A DNA stretch of 64,000 nucleotides from a virus: UHGV virus genome UHGV-0098755. One strand, given 5' to 3'. The notes beneath the pieces are model-generated. The model made no database searches, was not told where the DNA came from, and saw only the letters and a list, made by a program, of their open reading frames with translations. Position 1 is the stretch's first letter, and each line of letters begins with the position of its first letter. Both the position numbers and the translations under genes were made by a program. Below are positions 1,441 to 60,309 of this stretch, in pieces.

Positions 1441-2126
1441 TAAAAATCGTGGGTAGAATCAGCTTCAAGAGCTACTACATAATTCGCGTGTTCACCTTCA
1501 AATTTAGCAGCACCTTGTTTACCTTTTGCCCAGAGCAGAAGTTTATAATTTCCTGGTTGCATTTTCATATTTGCCATATTGATAATGAAATTAAATGTAT
1601 TTTCACCATCATAATCACCAAGAGTCAAAGAATATTTAACACGGGTTAAAGCAGAATCTTCTACTTTATTAAAACCGTTAATTACGATTTTACCTTCTTT
1701 TACTGTGATAGCAATTGTATCAATCTGCAGACCGCGAGATACACGCAACAGTTGTTGAAGGTCTTCAGCTTTAATTTCAGTAACAACAGATGCTACCGGG
1801 AATGGAATTGGTTTATTAGGAGCAACGACTGTACTCGGATCAGCTGCCGGCCAAAAAATTGTTGAACGGGCATCAGCAATTTTAATATTACCATCTTCTG
1901 ACTGGGAAATTTCTGCATCATCATTAACTAGAGACAGAATACCGAGAAAACCGTTCAAATCGTAAATCGCTACATCAAAATCAATAGTGTCAGAAATATT
2001 TGCTTCCGCATAAGTTGTACCATTAACCGCGCGAGTCATAATAAATTGACCGGATTTAAGCATAATACCGGAGTTAATAGTAGCGAAATTTTTAAGCAGA
2101 GCAGTAGTATCTTTAGACAGTTTCAT
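1440..2126 (-). CDS. 45: sliding clamp gp45
   Basis: 228 aa, matches recalled T4 gp45 (MKLSKDTTALLKNFATINSG...). Confidence 0.93.
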   Translation of the reverse strand: MKLSKDTTALLKNFATINSGIMLKSGQFIMTRAVNGTTYAEANISDTIDFDVAIYDLNGFLGILSLVNDDAEISQSEDGNIKIADARSTIFWPAADPSTVVAPNKPIPFPVASVVTEIKAEDLQQLLRVSRGLQIDTIAITVKEGKIVINGFNKVEDSALTRVKYSLTLGDYDGENTFNFIINMANMKMQPGNYKLLLWAKGKQGAAKFEGEHANYVVALEADSTHDF

Positions 2127-2157
2127 GTAATTTCCTTCAATTCAAATGAGATTTAAT

Positions 2158-2181
2158 TTTATAACTAATTTAATAAAGCAA
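2158..2181 (-). promoter_or_regulatory. MotA-dependent middle promoter upstream of gene 45
   Basis: MotA box TTGCTTTA with TATAAA -10 about 11 nt downstream. Confidence 0.5.
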
Positions 2182-2571
2182 TTAACGATTAAAATCAGCA
2201 GCAATTGTTTCAGCAACAATTTGAGCAGCAATAATTAGACGTTCATCTGCATTACCGCAATAATCATCTTCAAGGCGTTCACCACATGAAGTCATAATAA
2301 ATTTAGCACCAGCATTTAGAGATTCTGTCGTATGTTTGCGCATTAGTTCAATCCATTTATCACTTACTTCACGATCGATGGCTTCATAATATGCATGACG
2401 AGCAGGTGCAGATTTAATTTTGTTCTGAATAACTTCCATTGCGTTATCAGAAAGAGACAAAACCCATGCTCGACGAATTTTATTTTGGTTTTGTGGATTT
2501 GATTCAGAACGCACGTATTTTGGCTGAATATCTTTTACATCAACAGTATAATTCACAGTAATTTTAGTCAT
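2182..2571 (-). CDS. rpbA: RNA polymerase binding protein RpbA
   Basis: 129 aa ORF between 45 and 46, size and position as T4 rpbA. Confidence 0.7.
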
Positions 2572-6146: not shown

Positions 6147-7349
6147 TTATTTTGTAATAATGTCAAACTGCTCTTTAAAGCAGAAGCTTGAATCTTGGTG
6201 CTGATACAAAAATTCATAAGCTTTTTCACGTTCACGGTCATAAAGAGCTCGGTCAGATGACAGTTCTTTAATACGTTCAAATGTTGATTCCATGTCATTT
6301 TCATCAAACCAAACGATACCGCTATCGTGTGAAATTAATGGAGTATTATCAACACGGAATTTTAAATTTTCGCCAGTAGATTTCCAAAATACTGGAATTG
6401 TTCCACATGCACCAAGCTCGAGATGAGTGTATTCTAAAGAACGCTGTAGATATTTTTTATCTAATTTACTCAGCTGATAACCAAATCCGGATTTACTCAT
6501 GCGTTCAAGCATTTCGCTATTTACATAACGGTCAAGAATTTGCGTTGGCAAATTAGGAGCAATTTTAATTTGGTCTACTTGATGAAGACGATAATACTCG
6601 TATGGAATTCCTTTTTCTTTAATAGGAATGAACGCTGGAGAACGTTCCAGACCTTCCATAATAGTACTTAGTCCTGCAGGTTTAAGATGTTTTTCATGAA
6701 AATCAAACATCTGATAAAAGCCTTTCCATGTAGTAGTACGACCAATCCAACGGTTGATATTCATGTTAATTTCAGAAACATCTTTCCAGTAGGTTGATCG
6801 AACCTTCGCAATATCCATAGGAGGCTGAAAGTTATATACGGTCGGTGCTTCTTCAATATCATCAAACAAAGAAACAGTTTCCGGATACCATTCTTTCATT
6901 AAAACTTTATTAAAATCACCATTATCAGAATGGCTAAAAATAACATCAGCTCGACGAACAGTTTCTTCTAATCCCAAATTTCGACGCAAAGAAAGAGAAG
7001 AATGGTCATGCTGATAAACTACAACACGAACCGAAGGTTTAATGTTATCAATAATTTTTTTATAGTTATTAATCGTGTCTTCTTCAACTGAAGTAGCAGG
7101 AACTGAATTGATAACTAGAATATCACAATCATTTACCAGCTTAAGTGTTTTATCGTATTCTTTTGCCAATAAAACTGGAATTGAAAATGACTTATAATCA
7201 TGCGCACAATTACGAGTAAATGATTTATCTTTAGCATAAACCAAAGTTACTTCATGACCATTTTTAATAAACCAATCACGCTGCTCAAGAGAAAATTTAG
7301 TTACACCGCAACCTTCAAGACCTCGAGCCATAAAAATACATACTTTCAT
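6147..7349 (-). CDS. a-gt: alpha-glucosyltransferase (DNA hmC glucosylation)
   Basis: 400 aa ORF; length, position (after 47) and N-terminus as recalled for T4 a-gt. Confidence 0.8.
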   Translation of the reverse strand: MKVCIFMARGLEGCGVTKFSLEQRDWFIKNGHEVTLVYAKDKSFTRNCAHDYKSFSIPVLLAKEYDKTLKLVNDCDILVINSVPATSVEEDTINNYKKIIDNIKPSVRVVVYQHDHSSLSLRRNLGLEETVRRADVIFSHSDNGDFNKVLMKEWYPETVSLFDDIEEAPTVYNFQPPMDIAKVRSTYWKDVSEINMNINRWIGRTTTWKGFYQMFDFHEKHLKPAGLSTIMEGLERSPAFIPIKEKGIPYEYYRLHQVDQIKIAPNLPTQILDRYVNSEMLERMSKSGFGYQLSKLDKKYLQRSLEYTHLELGACGTIPVFWKSTGENLKFRVDNTPLISHDSGIVWFDENDMESTFERIKELSSDRALYDREREKAYEFLYQHQDSSFCFKEQFDIITK

Positions 7350-21484: not shown

Positions 21485-22465
21485 TTATTTTAGAAGAGTA
21501 ACCTCAGCAATTTCTTCCCAACCATTTTTGTCGGTCATAATAAAGTCAGCAAGATAAAGAGCAGTACGCAGTGAAACATTGCGTAAACGATTAACATTAA
21601 CTTTCATCCATGATAATGCTTTATAAGTTTCTTCATCAGAAAGACCGCGCTTTTGCATCATGTCAGTTGAAAGAATAACATCTTCAACCCTGACCATAAT
21701 TTCTTCATTAGTGTGAACACCCAAATCTAAATAAACCGAGCGGGACACTAATGCTTGTAAGTGTGGAGCAAGTTTAGTACCACGGTCTAATTCGCGGTCA
21801 ATGTCAACGTTTGTGATAAAAACAATCGTTCCTTTAAATTCAAACTCACGGTCAATGCCTTTTTCTTCTAAGTAAGAAGATGCAGTGCTCCAGCAGACTT
21901 TACGGGTCTCTCCAGTGTCCAGAGCAGCTTTTAGAAGATTAAGAATGTCCATATCAGAGAAAACATCCACATCATCAATCAAAAGGACAGAATTCTCTTC
22001 ACGATTATTCCAAAGCTGTTCATAAAGACCAATACCAGAGATTTTACCATTAATGCTTTTATATTCAATGTATCCATTATCATTTGCTTTATTTAAAGCT
22101 TTATCTAAAGAATACGTTTTACCAATACCTGCTGCGCCAGAGATAATTAATGAACGAATATTTCCATTAATAATACCATTCGTCATCATTCCCATAACAT
22201 TAAATCTTTTATTAATGCGGGTTTTCATATCTTCATACGATTCTTTAACTTCTTCAACTTTTACACCATCATATGAAATATCTGATTTGTAAACCCAAAC
22301 ACCGCGACGTTTACCGTCAATTTCAACAAAAACTTTACCATCTCCTTGTGCATCTACCGGAGCATTATCTGGGAACCATTCGCCTAAGAGCTCAAAAGTT
22401 CCAGAGATTTCTTTACCGAAGTAGATACCCTTATTGATAGTTACAGTTTTCATTTTATTCTCCAA
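21485..22465 (-). CDS. P-loop NTPase (AAA-like) of unknown function
   Basis: 326 aa; Walker A SGAAGIGKT and Walker B VLLIDDVD. Confidence 0.6.
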   Translation of the reverse strand: MENKMKTVTINKGIYFGKEISGTFELLGEWFPDNAPVDAQGDGKVFVEIDGKRRGVWVYKSDISYDGVKVEEVKESYEDMKTRINKRFNVMGMMTNGIINGNIRSLIISGAAGIGKTYSLDKALNKANDNGYIEYKSINGKISGIGLYEQLWNNREENSVLLIDDVDVFSDMDILNLLKAALDTGETRKVCWSTASSYLEEKGIDREFEFKGTIVFITNVDIDRELDRGTKLAPHLQALVSRSVYLDLGVHTNEEIMVRVEDVILSTDMMQKRGLSDEETYKALSWMKVNVNRLRNVSLRTALYLADFIMTDKNGWEEIAEVTLLK

Positions 22466-22488
22466 TTTTACATTTGTTTTGATAGGGT

Positions 22489-22521
22489 AATAGTATCACA
22501 CTACTACCCTGCTGTAAACAA
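22489..22521 (-). promoter_or_regulatory. T4 early-type promoter upstream of the P-loop protein gene
   Basis: TGTTTACA ... TGATACTATTACCCTATCAAAAC. Confidence 0.5.
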
Positions 22522-22522
22522 T

Positions 22523-22786
22523 TTATTTTAATGTTTGCCAAATTTTTACTGCTTCGCGACGAGATACTTCTACGGCGCCAAGTTCTATAGCTTTTTGGCG
22601 TCGCCGAGCGTGTAAGTCATAATGTTTAATGCGTTTATCTTGAAACCAAGAACGTTTCATTCCTATTGCTTCTGCCATTTCGTGAAGCTCTTCAATATCT
22701 CCATCAGTGAACATATGACAATTTTTAGTTGGATGACCGCGAAGTTTCCATCCATGATTCATTAAAACATCTACGTAAACTGTCAT
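22523..22786 (-). CDS. hypothetical protein (nrdC.11 position)
   Basis: 87 aa ORF. Confidence 0.45.
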   Translation of the reverse strand: MTVYVDVLMNHGWKLRGHPTKNCHMFTDGDIEELHEMAEAIGMKRSWFQDKRIKHYDLHARRRQKAIELGAVEVSRREAVKIWQTLK

Positions 22787-22932
22787 TGATTCTTCTCCAA
22801 ATAAGTTTCGATAATTTTCTGGGCGAGATAAACCGCGTTATCTTCAGTTGCGTCTTCTAAGAAACTTTCAAAACACTCTGAAATTTCTTCTGTATCAATC
22901 AACTTTTTTACTTCAATTGGTGTAATTTTCAT
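22784..22932 (-). CDS. hypothetical small protein
   Basis: 49 aa ORF (below track cutoff) read by hand; stop overlaps next gene's ATG. Confidence 0.3.
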
Positions 22933-22965
22933 TTTGTTTTCCGTTTAAGTGTTTGTTTTGATAGT

Positions 22966-23000
22966 TGTATAGTACCATAAAGCTTTATGCTTGTAAACCA
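22966..23000 (-). promoter_or_regulatory. T4 early-type promoter (conserved cassette)
   Basis: GTTTACA ... TGGTACTATACAACTATCAAAAC. Confidence 0.5.
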
Positions 23001-23015
23001 CTTTGTGAAAAATTT

Positions 23016-23048
23016 TTGAAATAAAAAAGGGGACCTCTAGGGCCCCTT
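23016..23048 (-). terminator. intrinsic terminator after the 161 aa gene
   Basis: GC-rich hairpin then U6. Confidence 0.55.
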
Positions 23049-23057
23049 TGTGTTGAT

Positions 23058-23543
23058 TTATTCCATTTCTACTATATGCATGTTCTTTTTGCTATCAAAA
23101 TATATGTTTTTAACTATTAACTCAGAATTAATTGGCAGTAAAAACTCTCTTTCATAATCTACCATACAAAGATTATCATAAAGCTTGTTAAGCTTATCAT
23201 CGTCAGTTTGGCCAGATTCTTCAATTGCGATTAAATTTTCTAAAATGTCAATCATAGCAGTCGAATAGTCGAAAACGTTTGCATTTTTTAACACTACTAA
23301 AACATTAGTCATATAGCGTTCTGCCGCAAACGTTTCAGCTATATGAGACTCACTGCTAAAGGAAGTTATTCTTTTAAATTTGATTCTCCTATTAACTTCA
23401 AACTTATAAGATAGCACTTCCTCTATTGTAAGTCCTCTAAAAAGCACGTCTTTAATCTCAAGTTTGTCTTTAATGTAATCATTAACACGCTTATGATTAA
23501 AATCATTAATTTTGTTGCCAAGGCATTGCATTAAAATATGCAT
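23058..23543 (-). CDS. hypothetical protein with ADP-ribosyltransferase-like R / S-x-S / E-x-E motif spacing
   Basis: 161 aa; FRG (~aa 36), SFSSES (~aa 62), YEREF (~aa 130); own promoter and terminator; motif match by eye only. Confidence 0.35.
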   Translation of the reverse strand: MHILMQCLGNKINDFNHKRVNDYIKDKLEIKDVLFRGLTIEEVLSYKFEVNRRIKFKRITSFSSESHIAETFAAERYMTNVLVVLKNANVFDYSTAMIDILENLIAIEESGQTDDDKLNKLYDNLCMVDYEREFLLPINSELIVKNIYFDSKKNMHIVEME

Positions 23544-23587
23544 TGTATTCTCCTCAATTTTTAAAGAGCAATTAATTAACTACACAT

Positions 23588-23621
23588 ATATTATAATATG
23601 CTTTGCGATAGAAGTAAACAA
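23588..23621 (-). promoter_or_regulatory. T4 early-type promoter for the 161 aa ART-motif gene
   Basis: TGTTTACT ... CATATTATAATAT. Confidence 0.45.
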
Positions 23622-23641
23622 CTTTGTGACGTCATTTTAAA

Positions 23642-23669
23642 CAAAAAAAGGGGAGCCCGAAGGCTCCCT
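23642..23669 (-). terminator. intrinsic terminator after the nucleotidyltransferase-like gene
   Basis: GGGAGCC-TTCG-GGCTCCC hairpin then U7. Confidence 0.6.
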
Positions 23670-23670
23670 A

Positions 23671-24684
23671 TCATTTATAATAACTTCGGTGGTTTTCAAG
23701 ATAAACCCTCTCAAGGAAGTCATCCCAGAAACCCATGTCTACTTTTTGCTGCATACCGTTCTTAGAAGCTTCAATTGATGCTGCTTCTACTTGATCGACC
23801 ACATCTTCCAAAAACTCTTGAACCGTTTTAAATGGATGTTTACCAAGCTTCACGTCGAGAATAAATGGAGCGTCTTGGAGTGGATAGACTAAGTCACCAG
23901 TTTTGTAAATTTCCAATAGTTGGAGTCCACCACGACAAGCATGACTCAGAGCTTTCCAGTCAATACCCTCATTCGCTTCAGCCTTACGAGCGCGTTCACC
24001 ATATTCGGCATCAAGTTTATTCAAAGACTGCTTAAGCTCAATAAGAGAAAGTGTTGTCTGATATTTACGACCCAACACGGTATAAAACGTTTGTGGGCCT
24101 GTTTTCTCATGATTATGGAATACCCATTCGCAGAATTCGTTCTCTGGAAGACGATGCTTAATATCTTCAACTTTAGTGCGACGTTGCTTAATAGAACCAT
24201 CTTCTTGGTAATCAACCCACTGGTCAGGGATTTGATTAACTACTTTCAATACATCACGTAATGCGGCCAAACGAGAACCCTTGACACCGTATTTAGAAGC
24301 TTGCTTGCGAACATATCCTAAATAGGATTTCATGTTAGTCGTATAAAAACGAGAACGATTGTCTTGAATGAACTTCCATACATCAGGCAAATCAGATTTA
24401 ACTACCAGTTCAGGTGGAGTGTGGAGCATATCCAATGCTACAGTTTCACCATCTGCTGCTAATTTAAAGAAATACTTAAGACTGTACAGTTCATGGTCAA
24501 TATCATCTTTAGTGTTTTTAGATGATGTGTTGTTAGTGTTTTTACTCATATGCTCTTTAACATTTCCAATAAGAATATCACGAGCAGGAGGAACAAAGAT
24601 TTCTTTAAAATCTACATCAGATTCTGGAGTAGAAGTTCCATAAAGATGACTACCAAAATAGCTTTTCATTACTGTTTTCATCAT
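23671..24684 (-). CDS. Pol-beta-superfamily nucleotidyltransferase-like protein
   Basis: 337 aa; N-terminal YFGSHLYGTSTPESDVDF matches the GS-x(9-13)-DxD nucleotidyltransferase signature; helical C-terminal half; terminator hairpin after stop. Confidence 0.55.
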   Translation of the reverse strand: MMKTVMKSYFGSHLYGTSTPESDVDFKEIFVPPARDILIGNVKEHMSKNTNNTSSKNTKDDIDHELYSLKYFFKLAADGETVALDMLHTPPELVVKSDLPDVWKFIQDNRSRFYTTNMKSYLGYVRKQASKYGVKGSRLAALRDVLKVVNQIPDQWVDYQEDGSIKQRRTKVEDIKHRLPENEFCEWVFHNHEKTGPQTFYTVLGRKYQTTLSLIELKQSLNKLDAEYGERARKAEANEGIDWKALSHACRGGLQLLEIYKTGDLVYPLQDAPFILDVKLGKHPFKTVQEFLEDVVDQVEAASIEASKNGMQQKVDMGFWDDFLERVYLENHRSYYK

Positions 24685-25142
24685 TCAGCCTTATATTCAA
24701 TAACAGGACATACTTTAGCTTTACGCGCTTTTAAAAATTCGACGATAATAGATTTCTTGGGTTGAATAGGAGGTAAACCTTTATACGCCCTATCAATATT
24801 TTCTACGTGTAAAGCATAGTCCTTTTTCCATTTATAATCTTTATATTTTTCATGCAGTTGTGCAGGAATAACAAATGAACCAATAATAAGTAAAACAAGC
24901 AAAATGGCAAGTATAAATGCTGATGGAATAAGAGTCCATAAACTACCAAAAATAAGCCATTTCTGTATGATTTCTGCGCAGATGATAGTTAGACCTGCGA
25001 GTATAGTACATCCGAAAAAAGAAACGAAAAATGTAGGGATAACAATAGACCAAAAGTATGCGCACAGCGTCTTAGGTCGTTGCCATTCATCGTTAAACAA
25101 TTTGAATAATTTATAGTGCCAAGAGTTTTCATTAATAATCAT
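24681..25142 (-). CDS. membrane protein (about 3 TM helices)
   Basis: 153 aa, three long hydrophobic segments; overlaps the nucleotidyltransferase gene start by 4 nt. Confidence 0.55.
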   Translation of the reverse strand: MIINENSWHYKLFKLFNDEWQRPKTLCAYFWSIVIPTFFVSFFGCTILAGLTIICAEIIQKWLIFGSLWTLIPSAFILAILLVLLIIGSFVIPAQLHEKYKDYKWKKDYALHVENIDRAYKGLPPIQPKKSIIVEFLKARKAKVCPVIEYKAE

Positions 25143-25144
25143 AA

Positions 25145-25666
25145 TTATCCTTTCATTGAAGGTGTAACAGTTGTTAAATATTTAATCATAGCTTCAGCTT
25201 CTGATTTTGATAATGAAATTTCTCCATTGTTTTGACGAATAGAAATAAAATCCGGATGACGGTCACCACCGGCTTTTAAAACACACATATAAGTATCAGA
25301 TTCGTCTTCGATATTTGAAATGATTGAAGCAGTTCCACACGAATGTGGTTTTTGATAAATCAATACAGCTTTTCTTCCACCGTTTGACTGTTCATAAACT
25401 TTTAACACATCAAACAAATCACTTCTTTTATCAATAGCTAAGATGTTATTTTCATCTTCAATGTTAAATCCTTCGGATACTTCATAAAGTGTTACCCATA
25501 AATCACCTATATCGATAGTAGCATTTACTTTTCCATGACTTTCAAGAGCATGACAAATTTTCTTGATTTCGTCATAACTCATTTTAATAATATCATCTCC
25601 TTGAATAAGGAAGATGTCATTTTTAAATTCAACACGAATTAAACCACTTTCACTTGAAATAAACAT
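25145..25666 (-). CDS. hypothetical protein, tandem paralog B
   Basis: 173 aa; shares C-terminal block (...EAEAMIKYLTTVTPSMKG) and internal GFNIE motif with upstream 185 aa ORF. Confidence 0.5.
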   Translation of the reverse strand: MFISSESGLIRVEFKNDIFLIQGDDIIKMSYDEIKKICHALESHGKVNATIDIGDLWVTLYEVSEGFNIEDENNILAIDKRSDLFDVLKVYEQSNGGRKAVLIYQKPHSCGTASIISNIEDESDTYMCVLKAGGDRHPDFISIRQNNGEISLSKSEAEAMIKYLTTVTPSMKG

Positions 25667-25672
25667 ATTTCC

Positions 25673-26230
25673 TCACTTTGAAATCATAGTTGGAATGACA
25701 GAATCAAGATAAGTCTTTAGCGCAATAGCTTCGTCTTTGGTAAATGTGACAATATGTGATCGAAAATCGTCAATTTGGCGAATAGTTAAGACATCTCCTT
25801 CTTCATAACATTTTGATACATTTAAAACAGTTTCATCATTCTGATCACAAGCGTTAGTAATAATAGCATTGCAATTTTTAAACCATTTTAAACTATGTTT
25901 TCTTTCATTAGAATAATAAAAATATTTAATCTTAGTTATAAAATTATCCCAATTATTAATTGATAAGCATATTGACTCGCTTTCAATATTAAATCCTGGG
26001 CATGAAGAATAAAAATGAATTTTATGCTCATCATTAATGCTTACAATTTTATCAGTATAAGGATTTTCAATTTGGGTTAAATGAATGATTTCACTAGGCG
26101 TAAAATACAGCATATCGTCTTCTTGCGTCAAACGATACATATTATTTACTTTTTCTATAGCCAATTCACCAAAAAGTGAACTAACTTCTAGTACTAATCG
26201 TTTCATATTGATTCTCTTCGACTCACTCAC
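25673..26230 (-). CDS. hypothetical protein, tandem paralog A
   Basis: 185 aa; ...DEAIALKTYLDSVIPTMISK C-terminus similar to paralog B. Confidence 0.5.
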   Translation of the reverse strand: MSESKRINMKRLVLEVSSLFGELAIEKVNNMYRLTQEDDMLYFTPSEIIHLTQIENPYTDKIVSINDEHKIHFYSSCPGFNIESESICLSINNWDNFITKIKYFYYSNERKHSLKWFKNCNAIITNACDQNDETVLNVSKCYEEGDVLTIRQIDDFRSHIVTFTKDEAIALKTYLDSVIPTMISK

Positions 26231-26363
26231 AATTACATACTCCTTTGAATAATATCAATAATATTGTTCACTAGATTATAAGTAAACATTGGGTAATTAT
26301 ATTGAATCATCACATACACAACAAACAAAACTTTCATTCTCTTCTCCTTGACAGTTGACAAGA

Positions 26364-26396
26364 TTACTATATCATAACCTTGCCAACTTGTAAACC
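26364..26396 (-). promoter_or_regulatory. T4 early-type promoter for the paralog/TM/nucleotidyltransferase operon
   Basis: GGTTTACA ... TGATATAGTAAT. Confidence 0.45.
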
Positions 26397-26397
26397 A

Positions 26398-26571
26398 TTA
26401 AATGACGTTTTCAATAAAATTCTGAAGCTTTGTGTGCGCATCAACCATAATTTTCATTTCTTCCTTTGCGAAAGCTGTACCTCTTTCCCGAGCAGAATAC
26501 TCATAGTCAGAAACTGCATTAGCATATTCTTCAATTAGCTTCATTAAAAACATCTGCTTTTCAGTTTTCAT
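26398..26571 (-). CDS. hypothetical small protein
   Basis: 57 aa ORF read by hand, GGTGGA upstream of ATG. Confidence 0.25.
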   Translation of the reverse strand: MKTEKQMFLMKLIEEYANAVSDYEYSARERGTAFAKEEMKIMVDAHTKLQNFIENVI

Positions 26572-26755
26572 TATTCCACCTAATCATTTCAAGATATTGA
26601 ACTAACTTAGCTTTGGATTTATCCAAATCCTTTTTAGCTGCTTCTATACCATCGTATGAATATCCTTCACAATGCTCAACTGCTAATTGATATGAATCTA
26701 TTTCAATATCACGTGCTAATTTAATGATTTTTTCAAACTGTTCGCATGTTAGCAT
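26561..26755 (-). CDS. hypothetical small protein
   Basis: 64 aa ORF. Confidence 0.4.
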   Translation of the reverse strand: MLTCEQFEKIIKLARDIEIDSYQLAVEHCEGYSYDGIEAAKKDLDKSKAKLVQYLEMIRWNNEN

Positions 26756-26757
26756 AC

Positions 26758-26940
26758 TTAAACTCTCGTATTGTGATCGATAATTTCATCAAGAAACATA
26801 TCTAAAGCTTCTAAAGCATTATCAACTTTAGCTTCAAGTTCTTCAATACCTGATAAGGCAAAGTTAATGCGTTCCTCATCTGCTTTGCGAATTAAAGCTA
26901 CCAATTCTTTAATTTTATCTGCTTGTTCGATACTAATCAT
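26758..26940 (-). CDS. hypothetical small protein
   Basis: Track ORF trimmed to ATG overlapping upstream stop (TAATGA). Confidence 0.35.
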   Translation of the reverse strand: MISIEQADKIKELVALIRKADEERINFALSGIEELEAKVDNALEALDMFLDEIIDHNTRV

Positions 26941-27128
26941 TATTCCACCACATATGAAAGAGAGAATATTGCACACGCCATGTGAGTTGCAACTTCATCA
27001 CACATATCATAACGTTTCTTAAGAAGTTCTACAAGTTCTTCACTAGTAACTTCATCCATGTCGACGAAAAAATCACCATTAATGATGACGTAGATATTTC
27101 CTTCTTGATTAAGTGCTTCAATTTTCAT
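26940..27128 (-). CDS. hypothetical small acidic protein
   Basis: Track ORF 26940..27173 trimmed to internal ATG (MKIEALNQ) with AGAGGAG; the longer form would run into the promoter. Confidence 0.35.
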
Positions 27129-28167: not shown

Positions 28168-28749
28168 CTAACCAAGCTTTTTAGTTAATTCATTCCAATG
28201 TTTTCTACACAAAGAAACATAAATTTCATCACCAATACAGATTTGATTACCTTCTTTAACTGGTGTTCCATCTTCCATTAATCGAGCTGTCATAATCGCT
28301 TTTTTACCGCAATGACAAACTGCCTTTAGTTCAATAAGTTTATCTGCAATCGCCAAAAGTTCTTTAGAACCTTCAAACAATTTTCCAGCGAAATCAGTCC
28401 TTAATCCATAAGCCATAACAGGAACATTATATGTATCAACAATTCGACTCAATTGATGCACTTGTTCAGTTTTTAAAAACTGGGCTTCATCTACAAATAC
28501 GCAATGAATATCTTTTTGTGCTTCAGCCCATTTATAGAACTCGAAAATATCCATATCATCTGTAATAATATTTGCTTCCTGCCTAATTCCAATGCGAGAA
28601 ACGACTTCACAGACAGAATCGCGAGTATCAATAGCAGGCTTAAGAACTAATACACTCATTCCACGTTCTTTATAATTATGTGCAGCAGTCAAAAGAGAAG
28701 CAGATTTTCCAGCATTCATTGCTGCATAAGTAAAAATTAAACTCGCCAT
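28168..28749 (-). CDS. tk: thymidine kinase
   Basis: 193 aa; P-loop AAMNAGKS, Cys zinc motifs; matches recalled T4 Tk. Confidence 0.9.
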   Translation of the reverse strand: MASLIFTYAAMNAGKSASLLTAAHNYKERGMSVLVLKPAIDTRDSVCEVVSRIGIRQEANIITDDMDIFEFYKWAEAQKDIHCVFVDEAQFLKTEQVHQLSRIVDTYNVPVMAYGLRTDFAGKLFEGSKELLAIADKLIELKAVCHCGKKAIMTARLMEDGTPVKEGNQICIGDEIYVSLCRKHWNELTKKLG

Positions 28750-56262: not shown

Positions 56263-58070
56263 TGAAACAAAATATTAATATCGGTAATGTTGTAGATGAT
56301 GGTACCGGTGACTACCTGCGTAAAGGTGGTATAAAAATAAATGAAAACTTTGATGAGCTTTATTACGAGCTCGGTGATGGAGACGTTCCATATTCAGCTG
56401 GTGCCTGGAAAACTTATGATGCTTCATCTGGCCAAACACTAAAAGCTGAGTGGGGAAAATCATACGCTATTAATACCTCTTCTGGAAGAGTGACTATAAA
56501 TCTTCCAAAAGGAACTGTCAATGATTACAACAAGGTAATTAGAGCTAGAGACGTATTTGCTACATGGAACGTTAATCCAGTTACACTAGTAGCTGCTTCC
56601 GGTGATACGATTAAAGGGTCTGCAGTACCAGTTGAAATTAATGTTCAATTCAGCGATTTAGAACTAGTGTATTGTGCCCCAGGACGTTGGGAATATGTCA
56701 AAAATAAACAAATTGACAAAATTACCAGTTCAGACATTAGTAATGTAGCTCGCAAAGAATTTTTAGTTGAAGTTCAAGGACAAACGGACTTTTTAGATGT
56801 TTTCCGTGGAACTAGTTATAATGTAAATAACATCAGAGTAAAACATCGCGGTAACGAATTGTATTACGGTGATGTGTTTAGCGAAAACAGCGATTTTGGC
56901 TCTCCGGGCGAAAATGAAGGAGAACTAGTTCCTCTTGATGGATTTAATATTCGATTAAGACAGCCTTGTAATATTGGTGACACTGTTCAAATTGAAACAT
57001 TTATGGATGGTGTATCGCAGTGGAGAAGTTCATATACAAGACGTCAAATTAGATTGTTAGATTCAAAATTAACGTCAAAAACTTCTTTAGAAGGAAGCAT
57101 TTACGTTACTGATTTATCAACAATGAAATCAATTCCATTTTCTGCTTTTGGATTAATTCCAGGAGAACCTATTAATCCTAACTCTCTTGAGGTTCGTTTT
57201 AACGGGATTTTGCAGGAATTGGCTGGCACAGTTGGAATGCCATTATTTCATTGTGTTGGTGCCGATTCAGACGATGAAGTAGAATGTTCTGTTTTAGGTG
57301 GAACTTGGGAACAATCTCATACCGATTATTCAATTGAAACTGATGAAAACGGCATACCGGAAATTTTACATTTCGATAGAGTATTTGAGCATGGTGACAT
57401 TATCAATATCACCTGGTTTAATAATGATTTGGGTACATTATTAACAAAAGACGAGATTATTGATGAAACTGACAATCTCTATGTATCGCAAGGGCCGGGA
57501 GTAGATATTTCTGGTGATGTAAATTTAACAGACTTCGATAAAATTGGTTGGCCAAATGTAGAAGCAGTTCAATCCTATCAACGTGAATTTAATGCTGTTT
57601 CAAATATCTTTGATACGATTTATCCTATTGGAACTATATATGAAAACGCTGTTAATCCAAACAACCCTGTTACATATATGGGATTCGGCTCATGGAAATT
57701 ATTTGGGCAAGGAAAAGTTTTAGTTGGATGGAATGAAGATATTTCGGACCCTAACTTTGCTCTAAATAACAACGATTTAGATTCGGGCGGAAATCCTTCA
57801 CATACTGCAGGCGGAACAGGTGGTTCTACTTCTGTTACATTGGAAAATGCTAATCTTCCTGCAACTGAGACAGATGAAGAAGTTCTAATAGTTGATGAAA
57901 ATGGATCAGTCATTGTTGGTGGGTGTCAATACGATCCAGATGAATCCGGTCCAGTTTACACTAAATACCGTGAAGCTAAAGCATCTACTAACTCTACTCA
58001 CACTCCGCCAACATCAATAACTAACATTCAACCATATATTACAGTTTATCGTTGGATAAGGATTGCATAA
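56262..58070 (+). CDS. 10: baseplate wedge protein gp10
   Basis: 602 aa. Confidence 0.92.
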
Positions 58071-58729
58071 TGAGTTTACTTAATAATAAAGCGGGAGTTA
58101 TTTCCCGCTTAGCCGATTTTCTTGGTTTTAGACCTAAAACTGGCGACATCGATGTAATGAATCGTCAATCAGTTGGGTCAGTGACAATTTCTCAATTAGC
58201 GAAAGGATTTTATGAACCAAACGTAGAATCAGCTATTAATGATGTTCATAATTTTTCTATAAAAGACGTTGGTACAATTATTACTAATAAAACTGGTGTT
58301 TCTCCTGAGGGTGTTTCTCAAACTGATTATTGGGCATTTTCGGGAACTGTGACGGATGATTCGCTTCCTCCTGGTTCTCCTGTTACTGTATTAGTATTTG
58401 GTCTTCCAGTTTCAGCAACAACTGGAATGACGGCTATTGAGTTTGTCGCCAAAGTTTGTGTTGCTCTGCAAGAAGCTATTGCGTCATTTACTGCTATCAA
58501 TTCATATAAAGACCATCCAACCGATGGTAGTAAATTAGAAGTTACTTATTTAGATAATCAAAAACACGTATTAAGCACATATTCTACATATGGAATAACT
58601 ATTTCCCAAGAAATTATTTCCGAATCTAAGCCTGGATATGGCACATGGAATTTGCTTGGTGCACAAACTGTAACTTTAGATAATCAGCAAACTCCAATAG
58701 TACTTTATCATTTTGAGAGAACAGCATGA
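58070..58729 (+). CDS. 11: baseplate wedge protein gp11
   Basis: Track ORF starts at a TTG (58052); true ATG ([14 protein letters not shown]...) overlaps the gp10 stop, giving 219 aa. Confidence 0.92.
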
Positions 58730-60309
58730 GTAATAATACATACCAACACGTTTCTAATGAATCTCGCTATGTAAAATTTGATCCAACTGGCACAAATTTT
58801 CCAGCAGAGATTACTGATGTTCAGGCTGCTATAGCAGCCATTTCTCCTGCTGGTGTAAATGGAGTTCCTGATGCATCATCAACAACAAAAGGAATTTTAT
58901 TTCTTGCCACTGAACAGGAAGTTATCGATGGAACTGATAATACCAAAGCAGTTACACCAGCAACGTTGGCAACAAGATTATCTTATCCAAACGCAACTGA
59001 AACTGTTTACGGATTAACAAGATATTCAACCAATGACGAAGCAATTGCGGGAGTTAATAATGAATCTTCTATAACTCCTGCTAAATTTACTGTTGCCCTT
59101 AATAATGCCTTTGAAACTCGTGTTTCAACTGAATCAAAGAATGGAGTTATTAAAATTTCGTCATTGCCGCAAGCATTGGCAGGTGCTGATGATACTACTG
59201 CAATGACTCCATTAAAAACACAACAGTTAGCTATTAAATTAATTGCACAAATTGCTCCTTCTGAAACCACAGCTACCGAATCGGCCCAAGGTGTTGTTCA
59301 ATTAGCGACAGTAGCTCAAGTTCGTCAAGGAACTTTAAGAGAAGGCTATGCAATTTCTCCTTATACGTTTATGAATTCTACTGCTACCGAAGAATATAAG
59401 GGTGTAATTAAATTAGGAACGCAATCAGAAGTTAACTCAAATAATGCTTCTGTTGCGGTTACTGGCGCAACTCTTAATGGTCGTGGTTCTACAACGTCAA
59501 TGAGAGGCGTAGTTAAATTAACTACAACCGCCGGTTCACAGAGCGGAGGTGATGCTTCATCAGCACTAGCTTGGAATGCTGACGTTATCCACCAAAGAGG
59601 TGGTCAAACGATTAATGGAACACTTCGTATTAATAATACGCTTACAATAGCTTCAGGCGGAGCAAATATTACCGGAACAGTTAACATGACCGGTGGTTAT
59701 ATTCAAGGTAAGCGTGTTGTAACGCAGAATGAAATAGATAGAACTATTCCTGTCGGAGCTATTATGATGTGGGCGGCAGATAGTCTTCCTAGTGATGCTT
59801 GGCGCTTCTGTCATGGCGGAACTGTTTCTGCGTCAGATTGCCCATTATATGCTTCTAGAATTGGAACAAGATACGGCGGAAGCTCATCAAATCCTGGATT
59901 ACCTGATATGCGTGGTCTTTTTGTTCGTGGCTCTGGTCGTGGCTCTCACTTAACAAATCCAAACGTTAATGGTAATGACCAATTTGGTAAGCCTAGATTA
60001 GGTGTAGGTTGTACCGGTGGATATGTTGGTGAAGTACAAAAACAGCAGATGTCTTATCATAAACATGCTGGTGGATTTGGTGAGCATGATGATTCTGGGG
60101 CATTCGGTAATACCCGTAGATCAAATTTTGTTGGTACACGTAAAGGACTTGACTGGGATAACCGTTCATACTTCACCAATGACGGATATGAAATTGACCC
60201 AGAATCGCAGCGTAATTCCAAATATACGTTAAATCGCCCTGAATTAATTGGAAATGAAACACGTCCATGGAACATTTCTTTAAACTACATAATTAAGGTA
60301 AAAGAATGA
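58726..60309 (+). CDS. 12: short tail fibre gp12
   Basis: 527 aa. Confidence 0.92.

Follow-up and report, generated by a model that had tools for sequence, protein, structure and literature searches.

Full-length diverged paralogs of the MobD.1/y05I family side by side in the nrdC-tk region of a T4-like phage

The two neighboring open reading frames (ORFs) at positions 25,145 to 26,230 of the window, by which we mean the whole 64,000-nucleotide stretch of the virus genome UHGV-0098755 that was analyzed, encode full-length homologs that are true diverged paralogs, and both of them belong to MobD.1/y05I, a small family of proteins found only in T4-like phages. The ORFs are located on the minus strand and encode proteins of 173 and 185 aa, exactly as a sequence-only reading of this DNA had placed them. 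The assignment of the pair to known family entries, the history of the locus, the mode of selection acting on it and a proposal that the products are binding proteins make up what we consider to be probably the best overall explanation of this region.

The source of the window is a Tequatrovirus, that is, a T4-like phage, and the G+C content of the window is about 35%. A 2.2-kb query spanning the gene pair matched 506 phage records with 90-99% identity, nearly all of them representing Tequatrovirus phages of Escherichia, Shigella or Yersinia. Comparison with the annotated T4 record placed the pair in the nrdC-tk region, on the minus strand, with the downstream order tk, rI.1, rI, rI.-1, mobD.5-mobD.2a, mobD.2, mobD.1, the gene of the 173-aa protein (p173), the gene of a 153-aa protein (p153) and nrdC.11, and with nrdC.10 further down (Table 1). 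This region is hypervariable and dispensable. As a T4 deletion extending from nrdC.11 to mobD.3 is viable (PMC9825161), the unit containing the pair can be considered dispensable in the laboratory. In line with its dispensability, T4 naturally lacks the 173-aa gene.

Table 1. Features of the region around the mobD.1-p173 gene pair, in window coordinates.
Feature	Coordinates	Strand	Basis or remark
tk	28168..28749	minus	
Putative T4-early-type sigma-70 promoter, TTTACA-17-TATAGT with TG extension	26366..26394	minus	Consensus scan
mobD.2, 34-aa hydrophobic peptide, first gene of the predicted unit	26233..26337	minus	Same position as T4 mobD.2
185-aa ORF, ortholog of T4 mobD.1 (y05I)	25673..26230	minus	GTG start at 26230
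Recurrent recombination junction in the mobD.1 C domain, codons ~130-133	25808..25818	minus	Allele and chimera joins
mobD.1 stop/p173 start junction, with the 19-nt p173 stub kept by T4	25648..25672	minus	blastn homology with T4 resumes at 25648
p173 (173 aa, ATG start), second y05I-family gene	25145..25666	minus	Absent from T4
p153, small membrane protein, 153 aa	24681..25142	minus	phrog_944 'membrane protein', hydropathy profile
nrdC.11, RlaP-type (DNA polymerase beta family) nucleotidyltransferase, last gene	23671..24684	minus	Pfam PF10127 (E = 3e-11), phrog_388
Strong intrinsic terminator, GGGAGCCTTCGGGCTCCC followed by a T run, ends the predicted unit	23651..23668	minus	Terminator scan

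The homology of the two proteins extends over their whole length. BLASTP aligned p173 with the 185-aa protein over 175 columns, with 26% identity and 50% positives (E = 2e-10). The Smith-Waterman score of this pair was 112, whereas 2000 shuffles averaged 31 (sd 5.3) and never exceeded 69 (z = 15.3), and reciprocal phmmer searches inside the window gave E values of 3e-8 and 6e-9; the window contains no third paralog. Both ORFs carry the same two Pfam domains in the same N-then-C order, each above its curated gathering threshold: PF24449 (T4_y05I_N, cutoff 24.9 bits) scored 113.4 bits with p173 and 138.9 bits with the 185-aa ORF, and PF24448 (T4_y05I_C, cutoff 27 bits) scored 83.5 and 74.7 bits, respectively. 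T4 MobD.1 itself reached 146.7 bits with PF24449 and 73.7 bits with PF24448. The N and C domains cover residues 12-108 and 113-182 of the 185-aa protein and residues 2-95 and 102-171 of p173, and phrog_1502 was matched end to end (1-178 of 178) by both ORFs (E = 1.9e-66 and E = 5.4e-81). The C-terminal blocks and the GFNIE motif that had first drawn attention to the pair are present in both proteins and, with the block written as ...EAxAxxxYLxxVxPxM, are the two most conserved features family-wide. The proteins had been described as otherwise diverged, which is right as far as their 26% identity is concerned, but misses the similarity that continues beyond those blocks and is not limited to a few chance residues. 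The idea that the similarity arose by chance, or that either ORF is spurious, has nothing but the low identity in its favor, and is practically untenable given the E value and z-score, the Pfam thresholds exceeded by 50-110 bits, the hundreds of genomes in which both ORFs are intact and subject to purifying selection, and a natural in-frame chimera of the two genes.

Sequence and synteny identify the 185-aa ORF as the T4 mobD.1 ortholog. Its product is 87-88% identical to T4 MobD.1 (87.5% over 176 aa), and the DNA of the window between 25648 and 28200 is collinear with T4 positions 57258-59795 (95.3% identity). The T4 protein (NP_049711) bears the UniProt-style name y05I and is described as 'uncharacterized 21.1 kDa protein in mobD-rI intergenic region'. 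In both phages mobD.2 is located upstream, and the promoter and Shine-Dalgarno (SD) context are the same; the start codons differ, being ATG in T4 and either GTG or an internal ATG here. The GTG aligns with the ATG start of T4 mobD.1 and is preceded by GGAG 9 nt upstream, whereas the alternative ATG at 26206, which would give a protein of 177 aa, is the annotated mobD.1 start in several records; the choice between them is uncertain. p173 shares with T4 MobD.1 both Pfam domains and the predicted fold, but is only 27-28% identical to it and represents a separate subfamily, which T4 lacks. That the y05I of Pfam is MobD.1 follows from the match of T4 MobD.1 to both models; the mobD.2 homolog carries Y05J, and NrdC.8 carries Y05D. 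NrdC.8, considered as 'y05I' and as a third paralog, was rejected as unrelated.

The counterpart of p173 in other phages is RB32ORF097c, which is 92-99% identical to it at the amino acid level, occupies the same slot between mobD.1 and the membrane-protein gene, is annotated as a hypothetical protein in every record, and does not differ from p173 in any material respect. A GenBank note on the gene of this type in Kha5h reads 'similar to mobD.1; MobD.1-1', and thus the paralogy has been recorded already. Proteins at least 90% identical to p173 are present in 433 phage records, and the MobD.1/y05I family as a whole in 729. The tandem arrangement of mobD.1 and p173 is the majority state in Tequatrovirus, and T4 is the exception, because there the mobD cassette has taken the place of the membrane gene and of everything in p173 from codon 7 on. 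The gene pair is thus not new: it is represented by Pfam and PHROG entries and by hundreds of T-even records, in which its products are annotated as hypothetical. Its members are real but ordinary accessory genes.

The family is narrow: when 1.8 billion representatives were searched exhaustively with its profile, only 26 proteins were returned, namely full-length members, truncated or fused variants, and stand-alone C domains of 70-87 aa. There were no informative domain fusions among these 26 matches. The long profile matches P0025, P0026, P0032 and P0036 resemble repeat or low-complexity noise. A locus search of IMG/VR gave 3 near-identical loci only, and a word-indexed homolog search gave 13 matches. 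The stand-alone y05I_C proteins (70-87 aa, phrog_7763), exemplified by gp119 of Yersinia phage fHe-Yen9-01 and by proteins of Serratia phage X20 and Erwinia phage Cronus, share the C domain with p173 and MobD.1, including the FTKxEAxALxxYLxxVIPTM end, but lack the N domain of about 100 residues that bears GFNIExE. In fHe-Yen9-01 the gene of this protein is in the same position, directly upstream of the homologous membrane-protein gene and nrdC.11.

The sequence around the pair points to a five-gene transcription unit, mobD.2, mobD.1, p173, p153 and nrdC.11, which would be early according to its predicted promoter. T4 early genes are transcribed in the first minutes of infection from sigma-70 promoters with a -35 element of the GTTTAC type. 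The putative promoter of the unit is located 135 nt upstream, matches the consensus at 10 of 12 positions and has the TG extension; the same sequence is present in the same place in T4. Over the region, the scan found such sites no more frequently than in shuffled sequences, and the activity of the promoter is to be taken as predicted. The SD sequence of mobD.1 contains GGAG, p173 starts 6 nt past the mobD.1 stop codon, which is overlapped by a GAGG, p153 begins 2 nt past the p173 stop, and nrdC.11 overlaps the end of p153. In the p153 protein two segments are hydrophobic and the C-terminal tail is basic, and NrdC.11 is 98% identical to its T4 namesake. The terminator after nrdC.11 is likewise annotated or reported in e11/2, Kha5h and UFV13, and the mobD.2 homolog in the metagenomic contig L018 matches Pfam Phage_T4_Y05J. 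The pair had been described as heading the operon; it is indeed near the head of the predicted unit, but its members are second and third, as mobD.2 comes first.

In four lineages, a family gene or a stand-alone C domain always directly precedes the gene of the homologous membrane protein, after which comes nrdC.11, and homologs of p153 follow a y05I-family gene in Bp7, fHe-Yen9-01, L018 and SP21535. A y05I-family protein, the membrane protein and NrdC.11 could act as one module, e.g., a membrane-anchored RNA-repair or counter-defense unit, in which the second copy would be a spare or alternative subunit. This gene order recurs in Tequatrovirus, Dhakavirus, Tegunavirus and contig L018, and the genes abut or overlap by 2-6 nt between a common promoter and terminator, as would suit such a module. 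However, T4 has mobD.1 and nrdC.11 while lacking the membrane protein and p173, an extra gene of 136 aa separates the membrane-protein gene from nrdC.11 in fHe-Yen9-01, and gene order in T4-like phages is generally conserved by descent. We therefore consider a single module unlikely, and return below to the preferred reading, in which the two proteins are early binding proteins.

Several observations bear on the age of the pair. In aligned codons, p173 and mobD.1 are 47% identical at the nucleotide level, and blastn found no significant HSP between them. In a neighbor-joining tree the p173 clade branches off outside all three kinds of MobD.1 sequence, namely allele A, allele B and the orthologs from Dhakavirus. 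Lineages with a single gene exist as well: contig L018 has only the p173 type, and its gene (56% identical) occupies this slot, Dhakavirus Bp7 carries just one MobD.1, followed by the membrane protein and nrdC.11, and in Tegunavirus fHe-Yen9-01 the slot holds only a stand-alone C domain of 74 aa. The lack of DNA similarity and the position of p173 outside all MobD.1 orthologs show that the duplication is not recent; either mobD.1 and p173 are paralogs that separated long ago, or they are old alternative alleles that have come to lie next to each other. Hence, the earlier designation of the genes as tandem duplicated is correct in that they are homologous neighbors, but they are not recent in-place duplicates.

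The history of the locus can be followed by comparison with T4. Synteny with T4 breaks at 24685 and 25648, and the segment 24686..25647, which comprises p153 and p173 minus its first 19 nt, is represented in T4 by 808 bp with mobD. Thus, the free-standing HNH homing-endonuclease cassette of T4 occupies exactly the slot of p173 and p153, between nrdC.11 and mobD.1; the MobD protein itself is unrelated to either of them and is their replacement, not their relative. Directly after the mobD.1 stop codon, T4 reads ATGTTTATTTCAAGTGGAA, the start of p173. As this stub remains in T4, T4 descends from a p173-bearing ancestor in which the mobD cassette displaced two genes. The 42-nt mobD.1/p173 junction is 100% identical in most records, and the complete T4-type mobD cassette is present in 47 records. 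A candidate homing site for MobD, the mobD.1/p173 junction at about 25640-25690, is one by-product of this comparison.

Other exchanges involve mobD.1 itself. SP21535 encodes one in-frame MobD.1::p173 chimera, of which nucleotides 1-400 are mobD.1-like (94%) and nucleotides 379-538 are p173-like (97.5%), with an overlap of 22 nt. RB27, e11/2, Kha5h and NBEco003 carry a MobD.1 allele that is 49% identical to that of the window, between flanks that are 97-100% identical. The join between allele B and allele A in RB27 and NBEco003 is at 25808 and that of the SP21535 chimera is at 25818, only ten bases apart, so that recombination has recurred at this site in the C domain; the left break, at 26232 (the mobD.2 end), is common to all variants. 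The identity of alleles A and B over the last 45 codons reflects the recombination junction, and not necessarily selection. These comparisons show that the locus evolves through the exchange, fusion and deletion of entire alleles and cassettes. An account of this hypervariable T4 locus, with its alternative cassettes, chimera, mobD stub and recurrent recombination junction, is a further by-product of the analysis.

In addition to being exchanged, the genes vary. The mobD.1 gene, p173 and the next, membrane-protein gene have 3-10 times more amino acid variation than the flanking genes, with variable residues clustered at positions 39-50 of p173 and 83-101 of MobD.1. We compared 10-15 Tequatrovirus loci by Nei-Gojobori counting, which with so few sequences could miss a few positively selected sites; nrdC.10 was excluded from this comparison because of a frame error. 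Pooled pN/pS was 0.21 for mobD.1, 0.15 for p173 and 0.18 for p153, as compared with 0.02 for tk and rI.-1, 0.05 for rI.1, 0.09 for rI and 0.10 for nrdC.11. The dN/dS of mobD.1 and p173 was 0.14-0.21, and their pN/pS was 0.14-0.25 by domain and did not exceed 0.42 in sliding windows of 30 codons in either gene. Clearly, mobD.1 and p173 are under purifying selection, which is 2-10 times looser than that on the flanking genes, and no region of them has a ratio above 1. Their diversification proceeds mainly by the replacement of alleles or cassettes, and not by rapid point mutation.

These results bear directly on a reading built on the sequence-only one, in which a recent tandem duplication produced two copies that diversifying selection then drove apart as specificity or anti-defense factors. 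The part of it that describes diverged paralogs in a phage accessory region is well founded, given the homology of the genes, their dispensable region and their variability relative to neighbors. The excess of variation in both genes and in the membrane-protein gene, the deeply divergent alleles within one genus, and the early, dispensable character of the region would also suit the reading as a whole. On the other hand, the genes retain no similarity at the DNA level, p173 falls outside all MobD.1 orthologs, single-copy lineages of either type exist (Bp7 and L018), selection is purifying in every window, which speaks against diversification by point substitution, and neither protein credibly matched the defense- or anti-defense-related models of PADLOC. 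As a whole, we regard this scenario as quite unlikely, and its "recent" and "gene-wide positive selection" parts as largely refuted; an old pair, diversified mainly by cassette exchange, fits better with the tree, the single-copy lineages and the pN/pS values.

The structures of both proteins were predicted with AlphaFold2 from an 18-sequence family alignment, with a pLDDT of 86.6 for MobD.1 and 84.6 for p173. A shared fold had been suggested as a check on the relationship, and both models indeed have the same 16 predicted secondary-structure elements in the same order, EEEE-H-EEEE-H-EEEEE-H. The N domain is modeled as four strands, a helix, four strands and a helix, and the C domain as five strands and a terminal helix. 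By hhalign, the first N subdomain and the C domain gave a weak signal for a shared module (P = 1e-4), [LI]xQ..D..[IV]x[FL][TS]xxE. Neither the individual proteins nor the family profile matched any PDB sequence, and a Foldseek search of BFVD with the models returned family members only. Foldseek matches of both models to PDB structures were marginal, beta-rich and mutually inconsistent (TM-scores mostly below 0.2, rmsd 16-20 Å), including PH-like proteins, Ctf4, a hydroquinone dioxygenase entry, a protein of cupin-like fold, sliding clamps and LytTR (E = 0.07), and a functional assignment based on fold was rejected for that reason. The best matches of the MobD.1 model were the tandem PH-like proteins Pob3-M, Rtt106 and SSRP1-M (E = 1e-3 to 5e-2). 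Like the MobD.1 model, each of them is built of consecutive modules consisting of a beta-sheet and a C-terminal helix, but they differ from it in structure (TM 0.16-0.2, rmsd about 16 Å), have no sequence relation to it, and are not reproduced as matches by the p173 model. As far as the models can tell, this is a resemblance and not membership.

Sequence searches were equally sparing with functional clues. Neither protein matched NCBIfam, and PADLOC gave no credible match (one at E = 0.002, 15 bits); homology to a characterized defense or anti-defense component was found neither by PADLOC nor in PDB by sequence or fold. No catalytic motif or enzyme family was evident in Pfam, NCBIfam or PADLOC, and Pfam and NCBIfam revealed no DNA-binding domain, including HTH. 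We found no functional study of mobD.1, y05I, PF24448, PF24449 or RB32ORF097c in the full-text literature. A DRT1 paper that mentions nrdC.8 is irrelevant to this family. The eight family members analyzed are all acidic, in both domains, with a pI of 4.2-5.8 and a net charge of -3 to -24.

Pfam names both PF24449 and PF24448 as a 'putative transcription factor', and the two proteins could accordingly be DNA-binding factors that tune early or middle transcription of the phage or the host. Expression from a predicted early promoter would be compatible with such a role, as would the weak fold matches to LytTR (E = 0.07) and to the PH-like chromatin factors Pob3, Rtt106 and SSRP1 (E about 1e-3). 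However, those matches have a TM below 0.2 and an rmsd of 16-20 Å and disagree with one another (PH-like, cupin-like, clamp, LytTR), the profile search of PDB sequences was empty, and no HTH or other DNA-binding Pfam model was matched. Moreover, the acidity of all members and of both domains, with a net charge down to -24, argues against a direct role in DNA binding. A transcription-factor function is therefore very unlikely in our view, and the strong acidity of the proteins makes the Pfam label itself doubtful, which is another by-product of this work.

The mechanism that we prefer, though only tentatively, is that MobD.1 and p173 are non-enzymatic early binding proteins. Both proteins would be soluble and acidic, would be made early, and would bind another macromolecule stoichiometrically; this partner could be a protein of the host or the conserved membrane protein encoded next to them. 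The C-terminal domain is the most conserved part of the family, and other T4-like genera encode it on its own, as a protein of 70-87 aa. This domain, with its terminal helix and the tail [FL][TS]KxEAxxLxxYLxxV[IT]P[TS]M, could be the common docking element, and the more variable N domain with its GFNIExE loop may set specificity. As the variable N domain would set specificity, the two subfamilies might serve different partners or host backgrounds. The acidity of the proteins, the lack of an enzyme motif, the stand-alone C domains and the fixed position before the membrane protein are points in favor of this proposal. The Pfam label differs from it, and the conserved gene order could be mere inheritance; in T4, mobD.1 and nrdC.11 persist although the membrane protein is gone. 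Should the family prove to consist of host-takeover or counter-defense effectors, a function would be assigned to a long-standing T4 ORF.

A more far-reaching version of the binding proposal, to which we give little credence, is that MobD.1/y05I proteins form a class of early effectors with a new fold. In this class the C domain would dock on the membrane protein and NrdC.11, and interchangeable N domains (allele A, allele B and the p173 type) would recognize host factors or defenses. If that were so, the tandem subfamilies would widen the range of hosts or defenses that the phage can handle, and the maintenance of divergent alleles in otherwise 97-100% identical genomes would be explained.

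The target of MobD, the HNH endonuclease of T4, is given as unknown in PMC2988022, and the junction between mobD.1 and p173 is a candidate for the site at which this enzyme homes or cleaves. In T4, the mobD.1 stop codon is followed by 19 nt of the p173 start, and then by the mobD HNH cassette. The 42-nt junction, which comprises the end of mobD.1 and the start of p173, showed 100% identity in most of the approximately 490 records. The positions of this junction and of the other features described here are listed in the table.

Two independent recombination junctions, located about 10 nt apart, were found in the part of mobD.1 encoding the C domain: one joins allele B to allele A of this gene, and the other is that of the MobD.1::p173 chimera. 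Additionally, two y05I-family proteins look like natural deletion or fusion variants. In P0029 (210 aa), approximately residues 1-51 of MobD.1 are fused to the C-terminal part of NrdC.11, with the loss of p173 and p153, while in P0015 (146 aa) an unrelated tail is attached to the MobD.1 N domain.

The small membrane proteins of the p153 type, encoded 3' of a y05I-family gene, form a single conserved family in four lineages (27-55% identity), with a common N terminus (MIINxNSWH...LCxYFW) and C terminus (F[IL]KAxKxKxCPxIE).

MobD.1 itself may contain an internal repeat: the first N subdomain gave a weak match to the C domain in hhalign (P=1e-4), and the two have the motif [LI]xQ..D..[IV]x[FL][TS]xxE[AI] in common.

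Directly upstream of the mobD.1/p173 region lies a second array of tandem paralogs, mobD.2a, mobD.3 and mobD.4, all three of which belong to Pfam DUF7438. In five compared loci (L009, L012, L013, L014 and L020), RefSeq gives the name 'molybdopterin-guanine dinucleotide biosynthesis protein MobD' to several mobD.x ORFs, MobD.1 among them, and the name 'helicase loader' to a 61-aa ORF. As the Pfam-scanned window ORFs matching mobD.x contained only T4_y05I or DUF7438 and no molybdopterin-related domain, the 'MobD' label looks like a collision with the name of the T4 gene.

Between nrdC.10 and nrdC.11, a 161-aa ORF is present as an insertion. Its match in PHROG is to the C-terminal part of 'RNA polymerase ADP-ribosylase' (phrog_832), and in UFV-AREG1 it is annotated as ModB-like. 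A unit composed of a terminator stem-loop and an early-type promoter occurs three times in this part of the window, and these repeats flank the inserted genes, namely the 161-aa ART-like ORF, a 49-aa ORF and the 87-aa DUF4031 ORF. For T4-type phages, PeSL cassette borders have reportedly been described in connection with modular shuffling, and the repeats resemble these borders. The start of nrdC.10 is more likely the ATG located four codons in (MKTVT...) than the listed TTG, and its product showed weak matches to AAA and novel-STAND NTPases.

Positions of the features in the window and in compared phage loci
Feature	Window (nt)	Strand	Other loci (nt)	Remark
mobD.1/p173 junction	25640..25690		L001 (T4) 7259..7300	end of mobD.1 + start of p173
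mobD.1 C-domain recombination junctions	25808..25818		L006 3858..3879; L011 3359	allele-B/allele-A join and MobD.1::p173 chimera
MobD.1 residues 9-56	26065..26206			hhalign, first N subdomain
MobD.1 residues 111-185	25676..25900			hhalign, C domain
Small membrane protein gene (p153 type)	24681..25142	-	L007 4018..4470; L018 (metagenomic contig) 2060..2512; L019 3216..3644	3' of y05I-family gene
mobD.2a, mobD.3, mobD.4	26398..26976	-		57, 64, 72 aa; Pfam DUF7438
161-aa ART-like ORF	23058..23543	-		phrog_832, E=1e-23; absent from T4
87-aa DUF4031 ORF	22523..22786	-		
Terminator/promoter repeats (within 22466..23670)	23668..23651 / 23618..23590; 23046..23030 / 22997..22969; 22518..22490	-		
nrdC.10	21485..22465	-		326 aa; TTG start in ORF list
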